A stretch of 64,000 bases of DNA. It comes from Terriglobales bacterium. GTDB lineage: Bacteria > Acidobacteriota > Terriglobia > Terriglobales > Acidobacteriaceae. The notes under the pieces are model-generated. The model saw nothing but the letters and a program-made list of their open reading frames with translations, was not told where the DNA came from and did no database searches. The stretch lies in NCBI GenBank assembly GCA_035262225.1, contig DATFTE010000140.1:155-64154 (forward strand), given 5' to 3'. Made by a program: the position numbers and the translations under genes. Positions within the stretch are counted from its first letter, which is position 1. Every line of letters starts with the position of its first letter. This document shows positions 5,658 through 15,077 of this stretch, in pieces.

Positions 5658-8159
5658 TTATTGTGTCACTCCGGTGCCGGTGAGACTGATCTTCTGGAAC
5701 TTCCCGGCGGCATCGTCGCGCACCACCAGACTTCCGTTGCGTACCCCGCTTGTCGTAGGCGTGAAAGTCACCCTAAAAATGCAGAACGCACCCTCCGCCA
5801 AGGTCTGTGGCGGAATGGGACAACTGTTAATCTCAGCATAATCCCCGGTCACACTCACAGACGATATGGCCGTCGGTGCGCTGCCAGGATTGCTGAACCG
5901 GACGGTCATGGGGTTGCTGGTGGTCCCAATCTTTTGTTGTCCGAAATTGAGCCGGGACGGCGAAATGGCGACGTTTGGAACATTGGGATACACCGACACG
6001 GTGCTGTCGGCAAAATTGGCCACCGCCATTCCGACCGCGCCCACTCCGTTGAAGTCTGCTAAGGCAATCCCCACCGCATTCGTTCCGACCTGATATTCAA
6101 CATGCGCTTGCAGAGTTCCGTCGCCGTTTCCGCGTAACACCGATACCTGGCTGGCGAAGGTGCTGGCTGACAGCAGATCGGCTTTGCCATCACCGTTCAG
6201 GTCTGCGATGGCAACAAAATCAGGAGAATTCGATGTGGCGTAATCAACGTGCTTCTGGAAGGAGCCGTCTCCGTTGCCAATCAGCACAGAGACGTTATCA
6301 TTGTTGAAATTGGCGGTCGCCATGTCGAGCTTGCCATCACCGTTGAAGTCGCCGGCGGCGACCGAGAGTGGCTCCAACCCCGAAGCGAAATCAGTATGTG
6401 TGCCGAATGTGCCATCGCCGTTTCCCAACAGCACGGATATAGAGTTCCCGGCGGCGTTGGCGGTGATTAAATCCTGGTTACCGTCTCCATTTACATCTTG
6501 CGCAATGACTGCCGCCGGAGAGCTGCCCGTGGTGAAGTTCATTTTCGTCTGAAATGTTCCATCGCCATTACCGAGCAAGACCGATACGGTGGAAGGTCCA
6601 GCCGCCACAGCGAGATCGATCTTGCCGTCATGATTGAAGTCGCCGGTCGTCACATAAATTGGGCTTGTCGCCGTGGAAAAATCCATCTTCGCCTGAAAGG
6701 TGCCGTCACCCTTACCCAGCAGAACCGACACGTTATTGCCGCTGATGTTGGCAACTGCCAGGTCCATCTTTCCATCGCCGTTGAAATCCGCCGCAGCAAC
6801 CGACTCCGGCGCGCTTCCTGTTGCGAAATCCATGTGGTTCGTGAAAGTCCCGTTATCATTGTTTAACAGTACTGACACGGTATTAACTGCGCTGTTGGCC
6901 GTGGCCAGATCCGGCTTGCCGTCACCGTTGAAGTCCGCAGCGGCCACTGAAAACGGATTGGTTCCCACCGCGAAGTCCGAGCGCGGGCTGAAGGTGCCGT
7001 TTCCGTTTCCGAGCAAGATGGTTACCGTGTTCGCCCCAGGGTCGGCAACTGCGAGGTCCAGCTTGCTGTCACCGTCGAAGTCACCGACGGTAACGAAATA
7101 CGTGGAAGTACCGGTTCCATACTCAACGTGCGTCTGGAATGTCCCATCCCCGTTGCCCAGCAGAATTGAGACGGAATTGTCATTTGTGCCGTTATTTGCG
7201 GCCACGATGTCAAGTTTCTTGTCTTTATTGAAATCAGCTACCGCAACCGAGCTGGGTGCCCCTAATACGGCAAAATCCTGATGTGCCTGGAACGTGCCGT
7301 CGCCCTTGCCCAACAGAACCGAGACGAAATTGGATCCTCCATCAGCCACCACCAGGTCTGGCTTACGATCACCGTTTACATCGGCAATGACCAGGGCTTT
7401 TGGACCGCTTGCCGTCGCGTAATTCACCGCGGGCTGAAAGCTGCCGTCTCCATTGCCCAGCAGAACCGACGCGTCATTGCCGACGCTGAGGGGGAAAAAA
7501 TTGACGGTGACCACATCCGGCTTGCCGTCGCCGTTGAGATCGTCCACGGCCACGGCGAGGGGGCTGATATCAGTCGGGTATTGAACTTGGCTATTCAGAG
7601 TGCCATTGCCATTCCCCAGCAGGACCGATATCGAACCGGAACTGCATATATTCGAGCCGCAGGTTTCATTGGAAACGACGACGTCAGGCTTCCCATCGTC
7701 GTTCAGATCGGCAATAGCAACACCGATTGGTTCCGGCCCGGTTGCGTAGTCGACGTGCGTCTGAAATGTGCCGTCACCGTTGCCGAGCAGGACCGACACT
7801 GTATTGTCAGTTTGATTAGTGACCACAATGTCCAAGTGGCCGTCTTGGTTGAGATCACCGAGCGCAACTCCTACAGGCGCTGTTCCGGTGGCGAAGGTCT
7901 TCTGGGTGGCAAAGGTTCGATTCGATTTTGCCAACAGAATGGAAACGGTGTTGTCAAGTCCATTGGCAATTACCAAGTCTGGCAGACCATCGCCGTTCAC
8001 GTCGCCTTGGGCCACCGCCACGGGCTCCGAACCAGTCTTGAAATCAGCCCGGTTAAACAGATATGTCTGGGCTGAGGAAATCGAGACCAGAAGCATTAGA
8101 CAGACGAGCAAGTAAATCATCGATACGAGGCGCCAATTTGGAACCTGATGGGTGGGCAT
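5658..8159 (-). CDS. FG-GAP/VCBS repeat protein (13 repeats) with C-terminal choice-of-anchor-D-like Ig domain
   Basis: ORF 5658..8555. Start placed at ATG 8159 (MPTHQVPNWRLVSMIYLLVCLMLLVSISSAQ signal peptide). Thirteen roughly 60-aa units of the form DxNxDGxxDLxxxN...VSVLLGNGDGTFQ. C-terminus NFGQQKIGTTSNPMTVRFSNPGSAP...SLTGTG. Confidence 0.85.
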   Translation of the reverse strand: MPTHQVPNWRLVSMIYLLVCLMLLVSISSAQTYLFNRADFKTGSEPVAVAQGDVNGDGLPDLVIANGLDNTVSILLAKSNRTFATQKTFATGTAPVGVALGDLNQDGHLDIVVTNQTDNTVSVLLGNGDGTFQTHVDYATGPEPIGVAIADLNDDGKPDVVVSNETCGSNICSSGSISVLLGNGNGTLNSQVQYPTDISPLAVAVDDLNGDGKPDVVTVNFFPLSVGNDASVLLGNGDGSFQPAVNYATASGPKALVIADVNGDRKPDLVVADGGSNFVSVLLGKGDGTFQAHQDFAVLGAPSSVAVADFNKDKKLDIVAANNGTNDNSVSILLGNGDGTFQTHVEYGTGTSTYFVTVGDFDGDSKLDLAVADPGANTVTILLGNGNGTFSPRSDFAVGTNPFSVAAADFNGDGKPDLATANSAVNTVSVLLNNDNGTFTNHMDFATGSAPESVAAADFNGDGKMDLAVANISGNNVSVLLGKGDGTFQAKMDFSTATSPIYVTTGDFNHDGKIDLAVAAGPSTVSVLLGNGDGTFQTKMNFTTGSSPAAVIAQDVNGDGNQDLITANAAGNSISVLLGNGDGTFGTHTDFASGLEPLSVAAGDFNGDGKLDMATANFNNDNVSVLIGNGDGSFQKHVDYATSNSPDFVAIADLNGDGKADLLSASTFASQVSVLRGNGDGTLQAHVEYQVGTNAVGIALADFNGVGAVGMAVANFADSTVSVYPNVPNVAISPSRLNFGQQKIGTTSNPMTVRFSNPGSAPTAISSVSVTGDYAEINSCPIPPQTLAEGAFCIFRVTFTPTTSGVRNGSLVVRDDAAGKFQKISLTGTGVTQ

Positions 8160-8392
8160 GGGAATCGAAAATCTCCTTGCAGATAATCTGAGCTCTAGGG
8201 CCGCGATTGTATCGAAACGGCCGGACGAACGCGAGATGCGCAAATCTTTGCGTACAGCTCTTGCGGGTGTTTCAGTAAGTGGATCCCTCGCAGCACGAGC
8301 GGAGCGGAAGCTTCGACCAATGTCGCGATCGCACGCGCACCCACTGATTACGGTCCCGCAGGAGGCTTCGTAGGTCTCGTTGTCCACTCGAC

Positions 8393-8725
8393 GGGCATCC
8401 AGATCTTCAAAAAGCGATCCTCCACCAACAGCTTTAACAGCAACCCTGCATCCCGCCGATCGTGCTTCTTTTTTCGCGTTTCCCGGGCTCGGTTCTTGGC
8501 CGGATGTCCTACCCGATACTCGATGCCCAACTCTTCCAGCAATTCCAGGAACCACTGCATCGCTCCTATGCCTTCGCGGCCCACCACCACTCGACCCTCC
8601 AGGGCTCCGTAAAACTCGCGTACTACATTCCCTTCGTGGGCCAGTGTCTTGACCCGCCGCTTTCGCTGTCGCAGCATCGCTATGGTTTGTTGTCTTGGGT
8701 GCAGATCGCAGCTACAATCTTCACC
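8393..8725 (-). pseudogene. IS110-family transposase N-terminal (DEDD) fragment
   Basis: Within ORF 8348..9046: CDLHPRQQTIAML...VVVGREGIGAMQWFLELLEELGIEYRVGHPAKNRARETRKKKHDRRDAGLLLKLLVEDRFLKIWMP aligns with the IS110 N-terminal domain. It has no start codon and no C-terminal transposase domain. Confidence 0.7.
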
Positions 8726-8872
8726 TCGGCCTCCTTCGTCCCGAGCCTTTTGGTTGGATACCGCAGAGTCTACTCGGGTCCTTTCGGAGGCCGACGTCGT
8801 TATGACATCAGTCATTCGGACTCGAAGGCTGCGCCCCTGTGCTAGCCTTCCGCATTGCAACGGAGGGCCTAA

Positions 8873-9298
8873 ATGCCAGAGAACAAGACCAAGGCGACGA
8901 ATGTCAGCGTCAGTGCGTACATCGAGGGGCTGACCGATGCGACGCGACGCTCTGAGGCGAGAGAATTGATTGAAGTTATGCAACGAGCTTCCGGCGAAAA
9001 GCCGAAACTCTGGGGACCATCCATTGTTGGCTTCGGCAGCTATCACTACAAGTATGATAGTGGCCGTGAAGGCGACATGCCGCTTATCAGCTTTTCACCG
9101 CGCAAGGCCGCGATGGTTCTGTACAGCATGCTGGCTCACGCCGAGGCCAAGGCTGTCTTGGCCAAACTCGGGAAACACACCACAGGCAAGGGCTGCCTCT
9201 ACATCAAAAAGCTTGCGGATGTAGATAAGACAGTCCTTGAGACACTCATCAAGAATGCGGTTACCCACCACCGCGATCGCACCAACGTGGCTTCTTAA
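8873..9298 (+). CDS. DUF1801 (YdhG-like) domain protein
   Basis: 141 aa. VSAYIEGL...RELIEVMQRASGEKPKLWGPSIVGFGSYHYKYDSGREGDMPLISFSPRKAAMVLY is typical of the DUF1801 family. Confidence 0.7.
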   Translation: MPENKTKATNVSVSAYIEGLTDATRRSEARELIEVMQRASGEKPKLWGPSIVGFGSYHYKYDSGREGDMPLISFSPRKAAMVLYSMLAHAEAKAVLAKLGKHTTGKGCLYIKKLADVDKTVLETLIKNAVTHHRDRTNVAS

Positions 9299-9921: not shown

Positions 9922-10015
9922 TTGACGAAATCTGGCGCCACTCATTGATAGGTGTTTAGCGCACCTGCCGGGCCTTAATCTCGGGCCGATCCACGCCGCC
10001 GCGGACTCCAGAACG

Positions 10016-11239
10016 CTAACTTTCCCGACCAGCGACAGCGCCTTCTGTCTGATCTTGGAGTGCTTTCCCACAACAGGGCCCGGGCGGAATCGGCGCGCCG
10101 TGGGGACAGGTCCTTGGGTGACCAAGAAAAGTGCAGATCTTGTCCGTGGCTTCGGGCGACAGGATGTGCTCGAACTTGCAGGCCTGCTGTTCGATTTCCG
10201 ACTCGCTGTCGAGCGCCAGGCTGTCAGTGAACAGCCGCTCGGCCAGTCGATGGCGGCGGATGATATCGGCCGCGCGCTGCCGCCCTCGGGCGGTCAATTC
10301 CACTATCATGCTGCCGTCGCCCACTGACACCCCCGCGGGTTTCAGAGCGTCATGGCAAGGGTTTACGAACGGCTTGTGTTGGTGCGCTTCGGGAGGATGC
10401 GGGATGGTGGCTACCAGCCCCATCTCGGTCATCTTCTCCACCGCGATGCTCACCGGCAGCGCGCCGTGCACTTCCATCAGACTGATCTCTGCAGGCTGAG
10501 CGTGTTCTTCGAGAACCCAGAGTTCTTCGAGGACCTCGTCAAACTGCTCCTCGTCAGCCATGGAGAAAACTTCCTGCGCCGCGATCTTGCCGTGATGCAA
10601 CTCGAGCCGGCGGTCGGCCAGGCGCGCCACGACGGGATCATGCGTCACCATGACAATGGTGCGTCCCTGGCGATGCAGTTCGCGCAGCAGGCGCAACACG
10701 ATTTCTTCATTCTGCGCATCCAGGTTTCCGGTGGGTTCGTCGGCCAGCACGATCTTCGGATCGTTGATCAAGGCGCGCGCGATCGAGACGCGCTGCTGCT
10801 CGCCGCCGGACAGCTGGGACGGCAGGTGGTGAGCGCGTTCTTTGAGTCCAACCCCGTCGAGCGCGGCCAGGGCTTCCTGCTCATCGGTCATGCTGTGAAA
10901 GTACTGCGCCAGCATGACGTTTTCAAGCGCCGTAAGGAAGGGAATGAGGTGGAACTGCTGAAACACGAAGCCGATTTTTTCCGCGCGCACGCGGTTCAAA
11001 TCCGATGCCGAGAGGCTGGCGACGTTCTGATTGTCCAGCCAGATTTCGCCGGAAGTTGGACGATCCAGGCACCCGATCAGGTTGACCAGCGTCGACTTAC
11101 CCGAGCCCGAGGGGCCCATGACGGCGACCCACTCGCCGGGATCGACCGTGAGAGTGAGATTGTCGAGGGCGCGGATGACGCCACCATTCTGCTCGGCCTG
11201 CGCGGGATAAAGTCGGCTGACAGCCTTGAGTTTGATCAT
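10016..11239 (-). CDS. ABC transporter ATP-binding protein (MacB/LolD type) fused to a DtxR/IdeR-like metal-sensor module
   Basis: The N-terminal part (about aa 1-225) carries [24 protein letters not shown] and VTHD. The C-terminal part (aa 231-385) carries [36 protein letters not shown] and [15 protein letters not shown]. The frame is continuous. Confidence 0.85.
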
Positions 11240-11261: not shown

Positions 11262-12419
11262 TCACTCTCCCCTCAAGATCATAGCTGGTTCAACCCGCCG
11301 CAGCAGGGAAATCGGCAGGACCGCCGCCATCAGCGCCACCAGCATGCTGCCCGCCAGGATCGCCGGGAGAATGCTGAATCGCGGCACCACCGGAGCATGA
11401 AAGTTGACGCGCCCGATCCAGACGGCGACTCCCACACCAATCGCGAACCCCGGGAGCGCGCCGACCACGCCCATCGCAGCCGCTTCGGCGGCAAAGAATG
11501 CGTTGATCAGCCATTCCGAGGCACCCAGTGCCTTCATGATGGCAAAATCGCGGCGGCGGTCAAACACCCAGCCGATCAGCGTGGAAAGCACGCACAACGC
11601 CGCCGTCAGGATGATCAGCACCGCGGCCGCCAGCAGCGTGGCCCGCGTCTTTCCCAGTACCCGGGCTTCGCCTTCCATAATTTGCCGCACCGGCCGGACT
11701 TCGGTCGTGGGCAGAACTGCCGATAACTGCTTCATCGTGTCCGCCACCTCATCGGCCGACCCTGTCGCTGCGATCTCGATGGTTGAGGGTTCGACTCCGG
11801 TCCAATTCTCAAAATCACTCAACGAGAGATAGATGCGGCTGTCTTCATTGGCGCCGGTGCGCAGCGTCCCCGCGGGCTTGAGAGGAATCGAGCGCCCCTG
11901 GAAGCTGAGTTCGAACGGCGCCCCTTGTGGACTGACGACGGTGGCAGCCCGCACTCCCAGCAGCGCATCCTGCGCCGCTCTCGGCCAGTTGCTCACCGAC
12001 CACCAGTTGTCGAGTTTCCTGGCCTGCTCGAAGTCCGTTCCCGCGACGACCACCGACTGGCCGTCGGTGGTACGCGCGACCACATAGGCGAAAGGAACGG
12101 CCAGGCCGCGTCCGGCAAGCGTCGCCTGCACGGTGGAGAGGGCGTTCGCCGGCAGCGATTGACCATCTCTTGCCACCACCACAACGTTGGCGCCGTAGTT
12201 GCGAAATTCCTTCCGCAGCTTGGCCTGCACGTCCGCGTAAAGATTCAGCATTGCGGTGGCCACCGCAGCCGCTACCACCATGGCCACGAGCGCCGACGCC
12301 GCACGCCCCCGGCGCAGCAGGGCTGCCCGCACAAGCATGCGTACGAACATGGAAGTGTGCGGCGCATCCCCGCGGCGCCCAGCCACTGCCTGCGCCAGTT
12401 GGGAAGGATGGAAACTCAT
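11262..12419 (-). CDS. ABC transporter permease, FtsX/MacB-like
   Basis: TM1, then a large periplasmic domain, then three C-terminal TMs with MKALGASEWLINAFFAAEAAAMGVVGALPG. The ATGA overlap with the upstream permease stop (12416-12419) suggests translational coupling. Confidence 0.85.
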   Translation of the reverse strand: MSFHPSQLAQAVAGRRGDAPHTSMFVRMLVRAALLRRGRAASALVAMVVAAAVATAMLNLYADVQAKLRKEFRNYGANVVVVARDGQSLPANALSTVQATLAGRGLAVPFAYVVARTTDGQSVVVAGTDFEQARKLDNWWSVSNWPRAAQDALLGVRAATVVSPQGAPFELSFQGRSIPLKPAGTLRTGANEDSRIYLSLSDFENWTGVEPSTIEIAATGSADEVADTMKQLSAVLPTTEVRPVRQIMEGEARVLGKTRATLLAAAVLIILTAALCVLSTLIGWVFDRRRDFAIMKALGASEWLINAFFAAEAAAMGVVGALPGFAIGVGVAVWIGRVNFHAPVVPRFSILPAILAGSMLVALMAAVLPISLLRRVEPAMILRGE

Positions 12420-13669
12420 GCCTCCCCCTTCAGCGCGTAGACGGGATCGAATTTCACGGCGCGGCGAATTGCGGCTGCGCTGCCGGCAAAGGTGACGACC
12501 ACCGCGATCGCGAGAATGATCGGGAACAGCACCGGATCGATGGTGATCTGCGAATTGAAGATCGAGCGCCCGATCAGGCGGGCCAGAAACGCTCCCCCCA
12601 GAAAACCGACCAGCCCTCCCATCAGTGCCAGCAACACCGCCTCAGCGAAAAACAGCGCGGCAATCGAAGCGCTGCCGGCGCCCAGCGCCTTCATCAGTCC
12701 GACTTCCGCGCGCCGCTCGAAAATCGCAGTCGCCATAGCCGCCGACACCGCCAGGGCTGACGCCAGCAATGCCGCCAGCGTAACCAGAAGCATCAGGCCC
12801 TTGATCCGCGCGAGCACCGTGCCCTCGTTCTGCGCCACCTGTCGGATCTGCTCGGCATGGGAGTGGGGAATCGCCTCCTGCAACTGGTAGGCGATCGACT
12901 GCACATAAGGAGAGCAATACCAGCGGTCGAACATCTCCGGATTCATGCTCGCCGGATCGCGCCGCGCCAGGGCATCTTCCGGCTTGGTTAGGGCGCTCAC
13001 ATACACCCTGCGCACTGCGCCCGGCCTGCCCAGGATCTGCTGTGCCAGCGAAATCGGCGCAACCACTTCATCGTCTTCCGTGCCGCCGGCCGAGAGGATT
13101 CCTGTGACCAGGTAGTCGTTGCCGGAAATGCTGATCCGGTCTCCCGTCCTCTTGCCCAGCCTCGCCGCCAGCCGTTCCCCCACCAGAACATCCTGGGAAG
13201 TGTCATCCGGCCATGAGCCTTCGACCTTCCACCAGGGATGGGTTATGCGTACACCGGTAGTGAAATCTTCGGTGCCGAAACGGAGCCGCCTGGAAAAATA
13301 CGTTCCCAGCAGCGTGACCTCGGAGGAATCGAGATCCACATTTACCGGCAGCATGGGAGAAAAGCCCACGATGTTGTGCCGCCAGAAGGTGCCATGAATC
13401 TTCGGCAGATCGGCTTCGTTCAGGTAGGCGCCGTCGCTTGGCGGCTTGAGATCGACACCCCCAATCTCGAGGTCGAGTGTATCTTCCTGCGGAGTCACCA
13501 CCAGGTTCGCGCCGTAGCTACGCAGCTCGCGGCTGATCTTGTCGCCGATGTCGGTGGCCACCGCGATCATGGCTGTGGCCACGCCGACCCCTAGAGTGAT
13601 AGCGATCCCGGCCAGCAGCTTGCGCCGCTTCTGCCGCCGAAAGGATTCGTAAACCAGGCGAACGAACAT
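12416..13669 (-). CDS. ABC transporter permease, FtsX/MacB-like
   Basis: Same architecture as the downstream permease. FtsX motif region MKALGAGSASIAALFFAEAVLLALMGGLVG. Confidence 0.85.
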   Translation of the reverse strand: MFVRLVYESFRRQKRRKLLAGIAITLGVGVATAMIAVATDIGDKISRELRSYGANLVVTPQEDTLDLEIGGVDLKPPSDGAYLNEADLPKIHGTFWRHNIVGFSPMLPVNVDLDSSEVTLLGTYFSRRLRFGTEDFTTGVRITHPWWKVEGSWPDDTSQDVLVGERLAARLGKRTGDRISISGNDYLVTGILSAGGTEDDEVVAPISLAQQILGRPGAVRRVYVSALTKPEDALARRDPASMNPEMFDRWYCSPYVQSIAYQLQEAIPHSHAEQIRQVAQNEGTVLARIKGLMLLVTLAALLASALAVSAAMATAIFERRAEVGLMKALGAGSASIAALFFAEAVLLALMGGLVGFLGGAFLARLIGRSIFNSQITIDPVLFPIILAIAVVVTFAGSAAAIRRAVKFDPVYALKGEA

Positions 13670-13672
13670 GGC

Positions 13673-14920
13673 CTATGGTTGGAAGAGGCGAGCGCGCGCC
13701 GCCAAGTCCGCCTCCTTGATGATCACTGAATCCGAAGTCACCTCTGCAGCCAGGGGAATCGGATTGCAGCCCCCCGCCATGCCCACCGACTGCGGATTGA
13801 TCGGGGCCGCGCAGTTCTTGCACACCACCCCCTCCGGTCCCTTGTAGAAGCCCACCGCACCACAGATTTCGCAGGCGTCAAATACCGTGGCCAGCTTGCC
13901 GTCTGGTTTGCGGTACAGCCAGAAGCGCACCTCGGTACCGTTTTCGTTGGCGGCAAAGCGGTGCAGGTTGCCGTCAGAAACCTGGCCAAGGGGAAGGCTG
14001 ACCTGCCCGTTGACAAAGCTCACTTCGGTGGCGGGAGACAGCGCACTCACGCTCTTGGTGTAGATGAACTCGGCGGTCACCAGAACGATGAACAGGAACG
14101 AACTGGCGTAGAGGGAAGCCATCCACAACCGCTCGCGGCGCGCGCTCCACTGCGCCTTGCGGCGCTCCGCCGGAGAATCCGATGCCGGCACCGGTTCGCG
14201 CCGCTTAACCTCGAACAGCACCATCAGCGCCGCCAGCGCCAGGATGGTCACGAAGAAGAACATGTCGTTGCGCACAATCGGACCGATGATCGCCATCTCG
14301 CGCTTGGAGGAGGGAAGCACGCCGTTTTCAGAGAGCTCATGCAGTCCGGAGATGATCAGCTGCGCGGCGACAAAGAACAGGATCACTGTAGTGACGCGGA
14401 AGAATTTCTGCAGGTTGATGCGGACGCTGCCTTTGACGAACATCACGCCAAACAGAATCGCGACCACCACACCGAGGAGCGTTCCCATGAAACTCAACAG
14501 CTCGCTCGAGTTCAGCGAAACCGCCCCCAGGATCAGCACGGTCTCCACGCCCTCGCGCAACACCATCAGAAAAACGAAGAGGAACAACCCGAACCAGGCG
14601 TCCTCGCCCGCCAGCAACCCCACTTTCCCCTCAATCTGTCCTTTCAGTTTGCGGCCCGTTTTCATCATGAAAATGATCATGGTGACGACGAAGAAGGCCG
14701 CAGCCAACATCACCCAACCTTCGAAAATATCCTGGTTCCACTTGGTGCGAGAGAGCAGGACCGCGATCCCGATGCTGCCGACGAACGCCGAACCCAGGGC
14801 CGCGTAGACCGACTTTCTCAGGTCCGGGCGATTGATCTTGGCCAGATAGGCGAGGGTAATGCCCACGATCAGGGCGGCTTCGACCCCCTCGCGGAGGGTG
14901 ATGATGAAAGCCTGCAACAT
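13673..14920 (-). CDS. FTR1/EfeU-type iron permease fused to a DUF2318 Cys-rich domain
   Basis: Two REXXE motifs (REGVEAALIV, REGVETVLIL) sit in a polytopic N-terminal half. The C-terminal half has one TM plus DACEICGAVGFYKGPEGVVCKNCAAPINPQSVGMAGGCNPIPL. Confidence 0.85.
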   Translation of the reverse strand: MLQAFIITLREGVEAALIVGITLAYLAKINRPDLRKSVYAALGSAFVGSIGIAVLLSRTKWNQDIFEGWVMLAAAFFVVTMIIFMMKTGRKLKGQIEGKVGLLAGEDAWFGLFLFVFLMVLREGVETVLILGAVSLNSSELLSFMGTLLGVVVAILFGVMFVKGSVRINLQKFFRVTTVILFFVAAQLIISGLHELSENGVLPSSKREMAIIGPIVRNDMFFFVTILALAALMVLFEVKRREPVPASDSPAERRKAQWSARRERLWMASLYASSFLFIVLVTAEFIYTKSVSALSPATEVSFVNGQVSLPLGQVSDGNLHRFAANENGTEVRFWLYRKPDGKLATVFDACEICGAVGFYKGPEGVVCKNCAAPINPQSVGMAGGCNPIPLAAEVTSDSVIIKEADLAARARLFQP

Positions 14921-14944: not shown

Positions 14945-14959
14945 TGAAAATGAATTTCA
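14945..14959 (-). promoter_or_regulatory. Fur-box-like 7-1-7 palindrome upstream of the iron uptake operon
   Basis: TGAAAAT-G-AATTTCA matches the 7-1-7 Fur consensus TGATAAT-N-ATTATCA at 11 of 14 positions. It lies 25 bp upstream of the FTR1 start, between a TTGAAA -35-like hexamer (14961-14966, minus strand) and an AT-rich -10 region. Confidence 0.45.
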
Positions 14960-15077
14960 CTTTCAACTATACAAGAATAGTCTGCAGCGGCGGCGAGCGT
15001 CAACGCGTCGAGTCACAGGTGGACGTGATTTGCATCACATGGGGATGTGGCAGGGTTGAACGGCATCGTCTGCTCCC

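Follow-up and report, generated by a model that had tools for sequence, protein, structure and literature searches.

An ABC transporter ATPase fused in frame to a DtxR-like metal sensor in an FTR1-type iron operon of Terriglobales

The locus

Here, we describe a gene fusion in a 64,000-nucleotide stretch of DNA from a bacterium of the Terriglobales, Acidobacteriota (GenBank assembly GCA_035262225.1, contig DATFTE010000140.1, positions 155 to 64,154 of the forward strand). This whole stretch is called the window in the following, and all coordinates refer to it. The gene in question encodes the ATPase of an ATP-binding cassette (ABC) transporter, which continues within the same open reading frame (ORF) into a two-domain module related to the metal-dependent repressors DtxR and IdeR. 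It is the last of four genes on the minus strand, in the order FTR1-DUF2318, FtsX, FtsX and ATPase-sensor fusion. Through the fused module the transporter probably senses the iron of the cell directly. The operon comprises the following genes.

Gene 1, 13673-14920, minus strand: FTR1/EfeU-family iron permease fused to an FtrD-like (DUF2318) cysteine-rich domain, 415 amino acids (aa); Pfam FTR1 5.1e-38, FtrD-like 1.9e-29
Gene 2, 12416-13669, minus strand: FtsX-type permease with a MacB periplasmic core domain, 417 aa; Pfam FtsX 1.4e-16, MacB_PCD 6.5e-15
Gene 3, 11262-12419, minus strand: second FtsX-type permease, 385 aa; Pfam FtsX 1.5e-15 and a weak MacB_PCD match
Gene 4, 10016-11239, minus strand: fusion of an ABC ATPase and a DtxR-like sensor, 407 aa, ATG start, HKD02640.1

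Genes 2 and 3 share 4 nucleotides (nt), at the end of the former and the start of the latter, and gene 1 also matches the NCBIfam EfeU model (6e-46), under the model cut-off. An earlier interpretation, made from the letters of the window and hereafter called the sequence-only reading, had described the locus as fetMP-type. This has to be corrected: the operon is of the P19/FTR1-DUF2318-FtsX-ABC type, without the P19 gene. No P19/FetP gene is found between or beside the four genes, and the flanking ORFs are SprT-like, DUF1801 or without a Pfam match.

The fusion and its conservation

The ORF at 10016-11239 contains zero internal stops and is read in a single frame. According to Pfam, its 407-aa product carries ABC_tran at aa 25-170 (8e-37) and Fe_dep_repr_C (PF02742) at aa 316-385 (2.8e-26, 91.7 bits against a cut-off of 27). 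The sequence-only reading had suggested a profile scan for both halves of an iron-dependent repressor next to ABC_tran. ABC_tran and Fe_dep_repr_C were indeed recovered, but the N-terminal helix-turn-helix domain PF01325 gave no match in the 407-aa protein at E <= 0.01. An identical protein of 407 aa, HKD02640.1, comes from a Terriglobales metagenome-assembled genome (MAG) and is annotated as 'ATP-binding cassette domain-containing protein'; its 90% cluster has five more members of 407 aa (six in all).

Relatives were searched for in one genome per GTDB species. At least 441 stretches encode a relative, and the best 80 of these were analysed, every one of which belongs to Terriglobia/Acidobacteriaceae. 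The junction between ATPase and sensor lies within one ORF in all 80 of these species-representative loci, and the fusion is of full length in 73 of them. The remaining loci are cut by contig ends or show differences confined to the region near the N-terminus. The residues of the junction are conserved across the 80 loci, and both halves are highly conserved as well. The in-frame fusion proposed by the sequence-only reading, with its motifs at the places given there, is thus confirmed, and a survey of homologous loci finds it kept throughout these Terriglobia as well as in divergent lineages. The fusion is real and under selection.

For orientation in the following sections, the parts of the fusion protein are listed here.

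10568-11239, minus strand: nucleotide-binding domain, aa 1-224, of type VII (MacB/LolD/FtsE-like), all catalytic motifs intact
10295-10564, minus strand: winged-helix-like domain, aa 226-315, from the AlphaFold2 model and the profile alignment to IdeR residues 8-135
10316-10408, minus strand: His/Cys-rich wing insertion of 31 aa, aa 278-308, specific to the Terriglobia clade
10064-10294, minus strand: metal-binding and dimerisation domain, aa 316-392, from PF02742 (2.8e-26) and PDB sequence matches to DtxR/IdeR
10070-10135: motif C-x8-CPHG-x8-CC, aa 369-390, with C369, H374, C378, H380, C389 and C390

The ATPase half

The nucleotide-binding domain carries the Walker A motif GPSGSGKST (aa 42-50), the Q-loop FQQFHL (93-98), the signature LSGGEQQR (143-150), the Walker B motif with catalytic glutamate VLADEPT (164-170) and the H-loop VTHD (198-201). 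Its top NCBIfam similarities are MacB (5e-66), LolD (3e-63) and FtsE (4e-60), all under the equivalog cut-offs. In the full-length model the ATPase resembles MJ0796, MacB, LolD and FtsE according to Foldseek, with template modelling scores (TM-scores, normalised to target length) of 0.88-0.91, and the range widens to 0.85-0.91, normalised in the same way, if YbbA and HrtA are included. The partner permeases encoded by genes 2 and 3 match FtsX and MacB_PCD. The MacB/LolD-type assignment made before is therefore in good agreement with our data. Kinship to MacB, LolD and FtsE in sequence as well as in predicted structure indicates a type VII mechanotransducing ABC module and not a classical importer that depends on a binding protein. 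Hence, the term 'ABC importer' used in the sequence-only reading holds only in part: the gene closes a four-gene FTR1 iron operon, but its ATPase is of type VII. The system that this type VII (MacB-like) motor serves is of the P19/FTR1-DUF2318 type.

The sensor module

The whole DtxR/IdeR-like module spans aa 226-392. An AlphaFold2 model of aa 221-407, computed from 28 aligned relatives, has a predicted local distance difference test score (pLDDT) of 88.6 and a predicted TM-score (pTM) of 0.84. The top PDB matches of the module in Foldseek are two-domain IdeR/DtxR chains with TM-scores of 0.77-0.78 (normalised to target length) over 157-166 columns. Since a profile of the relatives aligns with IdeR 8-135 and the fold matches, the module is taken as colinear with the winged-helix and dimerisation domains of these repressors. 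Helix H1 (aa 226-245) bears E235 and E238, and the equivalent of the recognition helix is found at aa 263-272. In the AlphaFold2 model of the full-length protein, H1 begins one residue past the last strand of the nucleotide-binding domain.

The metal ligands of DtxR, whose sequence was checked against PDB entry 1bi0, correspond to the following residues of the fusion protein.

DtxR M10: E235
DtxR H79: H330
DtxR E83: E334
DtxR H98: E350
DtxR C102: C354
DtxR E105: E357
DtxR H106: H358

Across 74 family sequences, none of the seven residues (E235, H330, E334, E350, C354, E357 and H358) varies. The pairs named in the sequence-only reading, H330/E334 for H79/E83 and C354/E357/H358 for C102/E105/H106, are among them and align as stated. 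The two exchanges, M10 to E235 and H98 to E350, are both ligand-capable, such that the ligands of the primary site (M10, C102, E105, H106) and of the ancillary site (H79, E83, H98) are either kept or substituted by residues that can bind metal. The context of the operon points to iron as the sensed metal.

The same reading had regarded the module as a complete DtxR. The two-domain fold and the PF02742 match are in agreement with this. Yet the third domain, SH3/FeoA, is absent from the fusion sensor, PF01325 does not match, and the ligand positions M10 and H98 have changed.

Close to the C-terminal end, the sensor motifs ACKFEH (353-358) and CPHGAPIP (378-385) are found; two further motif stretches of the sensor lie at aa 233-245 and 328-337. 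C369, H374, C378, H380, C389 and C390 are invariant in the 74 sequences; they are shared with relatives linked to the Feo system, and not with DtxR/IdeR, which have SPFG in place of CPHG. The wing insertion (PHPP...) contributes H281, H286, H288, C295 and H296, of which H286, C295 and H296 are invariant, and H288 occurs in 73 of 74 sequences. It is modelled with lower confidence (pLDDT about 60-83) and is near-invariant in sequence within Terriglobia. The insertion is absent from the divergent fusions and stand-alone relatives described below.

Loss of DNA-binding features

The NCBIfam DtxR model matches the fusion protein over model positions 60-140 only, which is the dimerisation half, with 69.7 bits against a cut-off of 290. 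The residues by which DtxR contacts DNA belong to helices 2 and 3 and to the wing, and we take them to be R27, R29, Q43, R47, R50 and R60. Only one of these six positions is kept (K269, equivalent to R47). Q43 is replaced by Ile265 and R50 by Glu272, R60 is not retained, and the wing is replaced by the insertion. A different register, obtained from single-sequence comparisons (phmmer and pairwise), had put the recognition helix on the 31-aa insertion. It was rejected, as aa 263-272 is the location obtained from insertion-free relatives, from the profile alignment and from the secondary structure of the AlphaFold2 model.

The 90 residues from aa 226 to 315 hold 3 Lys/Arg and 17 Asp/Glu, resulting in a net charge of -14, with a range of -16 to -11 across the family. 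Net charge alone is no general argument against DNA binding, because DtxR itself has about -3 and the divergent fusion clade -1 to -5. The charge argument is valid for the clade of the window only, in combination with the loss of contact residues. The sensor module appears to derive from a DNA-binding repressor that turned into an allosteric regulatory domain.

Promoter and operator

Upstream of the FTR1 gene, three elements were located.

14998-15003, minus strand: -35 hexamer TTGACG, by consensus scan
14974-14979, minus strand: -10 hexamer TATTCT, by consensus scan
14945-14965, minus strand: putative Fur-type operator, 21-bp palindrome TGAAAGTGAAATTCATTTTCA, immediately 3' of the -10 hexamer

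Ahead of the FTR1 gene, most of the 68 related loci that were read have the same arrangement of TTGACG, 17-18 nt and TATCCT or TATTCT. The sequence-only reading had seen the palindrome and given its extent as 14945-14959; it actually covers 21 bp, up to 14965. The window contains a single copy of the palindrome (0 expected by chance), and 43 related loci conserve its consensus, TGAAATTGAAATTCATTTTCA. At the equivalent promoter position of 23-25 sister genomes, an alternative and unrelated operator, TTGCAACnnnGTTGCAA, is present. Over all these loci (L001-L080) the operators sit about 25-90 nt upstream of the FTR1 start. The equivalent of the recognition helix is identical in both operator groups, and L243V is the only discriminating column across the module. 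Two unrelated palindromes at one promoter position look like an operator swap between two regulators. The divergent fusion operons, for their part, show GTTGCAAATCATTTGCAAC-like boxes.

The layout of the operator, GAAATT GAAATT C ATTTTC, resembles that of the Fur box, GATAAT GATAAT C ATTATC, and 16 of 21 positions match the classical Fur consensus extended by one base at each end. As neither other iron genes nor further copies of the box were found within the 64-kb window, a metagenome scan for the box core was carried out. The exact 19-nt core GAAATTGAAATTCATTTTC occurs in at least 120 metagenome stretches, 80 of which were read. FTR1 promoters account for 43 of these 80 loci. The gene is lacking in the other 37, in some because the contig with this promoter is cut ahead of it; in others the box is followed by genes for two Fur-family proteins (PF01475, 5.7e-30 and 1e-26), a TonB-dependent receptor, PepSY_TM, OprB-type porins and an ABC ATPase. 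The box is thus the site of a global Fur-type regulon and is not private to the fusion protein. By sequence comparison, a protein other than the fusion would read the operator, and transcription of the operon would be controlled separately via the putative Fur-type box.

The box core also precedes two families of secreted proteins of about 300 aa without a Pfam match (L091-L170, e.g., L095, L106, L170, L148, L093, L101 and L112). In L112, L114 and L117 a second box, ATGCAACnnnGTTGCAT-like, adjoins the first within one intergenic region. The set of genes preceded by the box may serve as a draft of an acidobacterial Fur-type regulon.

Divergent fusions and stand-alone relatives

Outside the best 80 loci, the fusion recurs in a divergent form. 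P0143, from a soil contig, has 401 aa with a sensor about 55% identical to that of the window, and it belongs to an equivalent four-gene operon. This operon context is shared by the fusions in L081, L088 (Ca. Acidiferrales), L089 and L090 and by cluster members labelled Verrucomicrobiae and Bryobacteraceae. Apart from P0143, fusions of 358-408 aa are found on contigs labelled Ca. Acidiferrales, Verrucomicrobiae and Bryobacteraceae, and in two other MAG lineages. The position equivalent to M10 is His in this divergent clade. As in the window, no P19/FetP gene is listed in L081 or in L088-L090.

In L088 (6251-7399), L089 (6095-7321) and L090 (6128-7276) the DNA holds a single ATPase-sensor ORF of 382-408 aa. 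The public annotation, in contrast, limits the gene to its last 85-132 codons, under the names 'iron dependent repressor, metal binding and dimerization domain protein' or 'metal-dependent transcriptional regulator'. Since many public annotations are restricted in this way, the fusion is under-reported in databases. Each of these three operons is preceded by a divergently oriented gene (positions 1-2450) whose product of about 1000 aa has FG-GAP and Secretin domains, and a GBBH-like_N (DUF971) gene lies downstream of the fusion (7280-7800).

The nearest stand-alone relatives of the sensor are proteins composed of Fe_dep_repr_C and FeoA, e.g., P0154/L082 and P0220/L084, which are encoded directly after feoB. 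PF01325 finds no match in these Feo-linked proteins either, and their N-domains are acidic. With the fusion sensor they have in common the helix 1 motif (D/E)ExLExLW, RRHRLAERL, ACxFEH and CPHGxxIPxGxCC. Because the stand-alone relatives bear FeoA and lie beside feoB, the sensor subfamily seems to have been attached to iron transporters repeatedly. Two further members of this group have unusual architectures: P0238 has an additional FMN_bind domain, and P0191 is joined to a transketolase-like N-terminus, possibly an artefact of gene calling.

Surroundings of the operon

The region downstream of the operon contains the following features.

8348-9046, minus strand: ORF of 232 aa without a Pfam match, between the operon and the FG-GAP gene
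8873-9298, plus strand: DUF1801 gene overlapping the 232-aa ORF, between the operon and the FG-GAP gene
5658-8555: FG-GAP-repeat protein of 965 aa, about 1.5 kb downstream of the operon

No homologue of this FG-GAP protein was found by tblastn near the operon in the 80 Terriglobia loci. Behind the fusion gene, the only candidate for an intrinsic terminator, at 9923-9940, is weak and not convincing.

A proposed mechanism and its alternatives

The sequence-only reading had put forward, by analogy with MetN and ModC, a cytoplasmic metal sensor that acts directly on the motor of a transporter, and it is this reading that our evidence favours. Post-translational metal feedback on the ATPase by the fused DtxR-fold sensor would be the best explanation of the locus, and we give it slightly better than an even chance. 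What we infer here concerns metal binding, the identity of the metal, the sign of its effect and the geometry of the dimer. Two copies of the ATPase would sit beneath the heterodimer of FtsX permeases, and contacts between the DtxR dimerisation domains would bring their C-terminal modules together. Cytoplasmic Fe(II), or possibly Mn(II), would bind to a site formed by E235 of H1 with C354, E357 and H358, and also to the site of H330, E334 and E350. This may fix the geometry of both ATPase domains and most likely would hold them inactive. As H1 carries the ligand E235 and starts right behind the last strand of the nucleotide-binding domain, the binding of metal would pass straight to the ATPase domains. 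Inhibition at high cytoplasmic Fe(II) is suggested by the physiology of uptake and by the precedents of MetNI, ModBC and MalK. Under iron sufficiency, uptake would stop within seconds by trans-inhibition as in MetNI and ModBC, and metal feedback would thus form a fast layer beneath the transcriptional control by Fur.

Several observations weigh against this proposal. The sign of regulation is a physiological guess, because the substrate and role of the ABC module with its FtsX permeases in P19/FTR1 systems are unknown (PMC6083913). The full-length AlphaFold2 model has a pTM of 0.60 and predicts no confident interface between ATPase and sensor. The ligand set is a hybrid, with a Glu on helix 1 as in MntR and a Cys at C102 as in DtxR, so the metal cannot be named from sequence, and the six additional conserved Cys/His residues may form a second site, for Zn or an iron-sulphur (Fe-S) cluster. 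In the divergent clade, the linker between ATPase and sensor varies in length. The winged-helix part of that clade, with its net charge of -1 to -5 and several Arg kept, is not unusually acidic, which makes an ancestral role in DNA binding possible.

Two alternatives accept the fusion and dispense with regulation of the ATPase by metal. The module might be a chaperone-like acceptor in the cytoplasm that takes over the iron delivered by FTR1, or it might bind Fe-S or Zn via its extra Cys and His, the ATPase being unregulated in either case. The invariant residues of the C-x8-CPHG-x8-CC motif, where DtxR has SPFG in place of CPHG, would suit such a hand-off, as would H286, H288, C295 and H296 in the clade-specific loop and the tethering of the protein at the membrane beside an iron permease. 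However, the classical regulatory ligands of DtxR are all invariant and would be superfluous for simple hand-off, the Cys motif is present in the Feo-linked relatives without the insertion, and we know of no chaperone role for the DtxR fold. We regard this explanation as unlikely. Rather improbable, too, is a constitutive scaffold that joins the ATPase subunits without sensing, any bound metal being structural. PF02742 is after all the dimerisation domain of DtxR, the C-terminal domains of some ABC ATPases, e.g., MalK, hold the dimer together, and the full-length model gives no sign of an allosteric interface. Such a scaffold does not account for the invariance of all metal ligands in 74 sequences, including that of H1, or for the fact that distant clades substitute only residues capable of binding metal. 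Moreover, homologous ABC modules function without such a domain, e.g., in C. jejuni, whose ABC ATP-binding protein is described as plain (PMC6083913).

The two remaining alternatives concern the operator and the gene itself. The sequence-only reading had also considered a transporter and repressor in one polypeptide that acts on the upstream palindrome. Such a protein would be tethered to the membrane, and its module would bind the palindrome when loaded with metal. The predicted two-domain DtxR fold including a winged-helix-like domain, the location of the palindrome directly after the -10 hexamer, and the near-neutral winged-helix of the divergent clade with its retained Arg residues could be cited for it. 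But the box core is found at genes other than FTR1 (Fur-family, TonB-dependent receptor, PepSY_TM and OprB genes), the operator changes in 23-25 sister genomes behind an unchanged helix, and the module combines a charge of -14 with a missing PF01325 match, the exchanges of Q43 to Ile and R50 to Glu, and the wing insertion. The idea was rejected on these grounds, that is, a Fur-type box shared elsewhere, a swapped operator and lost DNA-contact residues, and we hold it to be very improbable. An error of assembly or a frameshift that joined two separate genes has next to no probability. Its sole hint is the NCBI annotation of some MAGs, where the last 85-132 aa are called as a separate protein. 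It is refuted by independent assemblies: the frame is unbroken in 80 of 80 genomes and the junction residues are conserved, the cluster has six members of 407 aa, and divergent lineages have the same operon.

Metal feedback on the motor is thus retained as the preferred explanation, with a small share of the probability assigned to none of those named here. Its wider formulation is that a DtxR-type fold has been co-opted as a non-DNA-binding allosteric iron gate on a type VII motor, that feedback on the scale of seconds acts on top of Fur control, and that the Feo-linked relatives belong with the fusion to a class of transporter-attached sensors. We rate this full version as falling a little short of an even chance.

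Novelty and significance

No publication on an ATPase-DtxR fusion was found in the literature searched, which is no proof of absence. No PDB entry combines both halves, and no NCBIfam model covers the fusion. If the proposed feedback is true, the fusion would give the first example of a classical metalloregulator domain whose target is a transporter and not DNA, and trans-inhibition, as in the importers of methionine, molybdate and maltose, would be extended to iron. Together with the Feo-linked relatives, it would establish a class of DtxR-like sensors attached to transporters, widespread but so far unrecognised, with the motifs ExLExLW and CPHG...CC as markers. A built-in sensor predicts that the FtsX/ABC ATPase is tuned to cytoplasmic metal, which would offer a handle on the role of this module in P19/FTR1 systems (PMC6083913). 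As the fusion is present in hundreds of species of Acidobacteriota, which dominate acidic soils, it bears on the iron economy of soils.

Comparison with known systems

The sensor module shares with DtxR, IdeR and MntR (PDB 1bi0, 2isy, 7b1v and 1on1) the colinear two-domain fold, PF02742, the equivalents of H79, E83, C102, E105 and H106, and the motifs RRHRLAERL and CxxEH. Whereas these repressors are free cytoplasmic proteins, the fusion sensor forms the C-terminus of an ABC ATPase. It differs further by the lack of a PF01325 match, its strongly acidic character, the lost contact residues and the 31-aa insertion in the wing. M10 and H98 are both exchanged for Glu, the CPHG...CC motif is added, and an SH3 domain is missing.

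Some ABC ATPases carry C-terminal domains that act in trans-inhibition, such as C2/NIL in MetN, TOBE in ModC and MalK, and CBS in OpuAA. The fusion resembles the MetN/ModC/MalK type in its order, a nucleotide-binding domain followed by a dimerising, ligand-binding C-domain, and, by analogy, in the proposed feedback of a nutrient on the motor. MetN also gives the longest full-length Foldseek alignments to the fusion, but with a root-mean-square deviation of about 11 Å. Pfam finds no NIL, TOBE or CBS match in the fusion, such that its regulatory domain differs in fold and origin from those of MetN, ModC, MalK and OpuAA. In addition, it sits on a type VII MacB-like mechanotransducer, whereas theirs belong to type I importers.

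The closest known operon is the P19/FTR1 system of C. jejuni (cj1658-cj1665; CJJ81176_1649-1656), which is located behind a Fur box (PMC6083913). Deletion of the six genes downstream of p19, including the ABC genes, impairs iron acquisition (PMC6083913). The order of FTR1, DUF2318/FtrD-like, two FtsX permeases and an ABC ATPase is the same as in the window, as is a Fur-type box ahead of the genes, which for the window is assigned by sequence. In contrast to C. jejuni, the operon of the window has no P19, thioredoxin or flavin mononucleotide-binding genes, and its DUF2318 domain is fused to FTR1. A DtxR-like sensor on the ATPase is not among the features described for C. jejuni.

The closest stand-alone relatives of the sensor, the Feo-linked proteins P0154 and P0220, carry FeoA/SH3 instead of an ABC ATPase and have no insertion in the wing. 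Viewed against all of these systems, the fusion combines two known kinds of protein, an ABC ATPase with a regulatory C-domain and a sensor of the DtxR fold.

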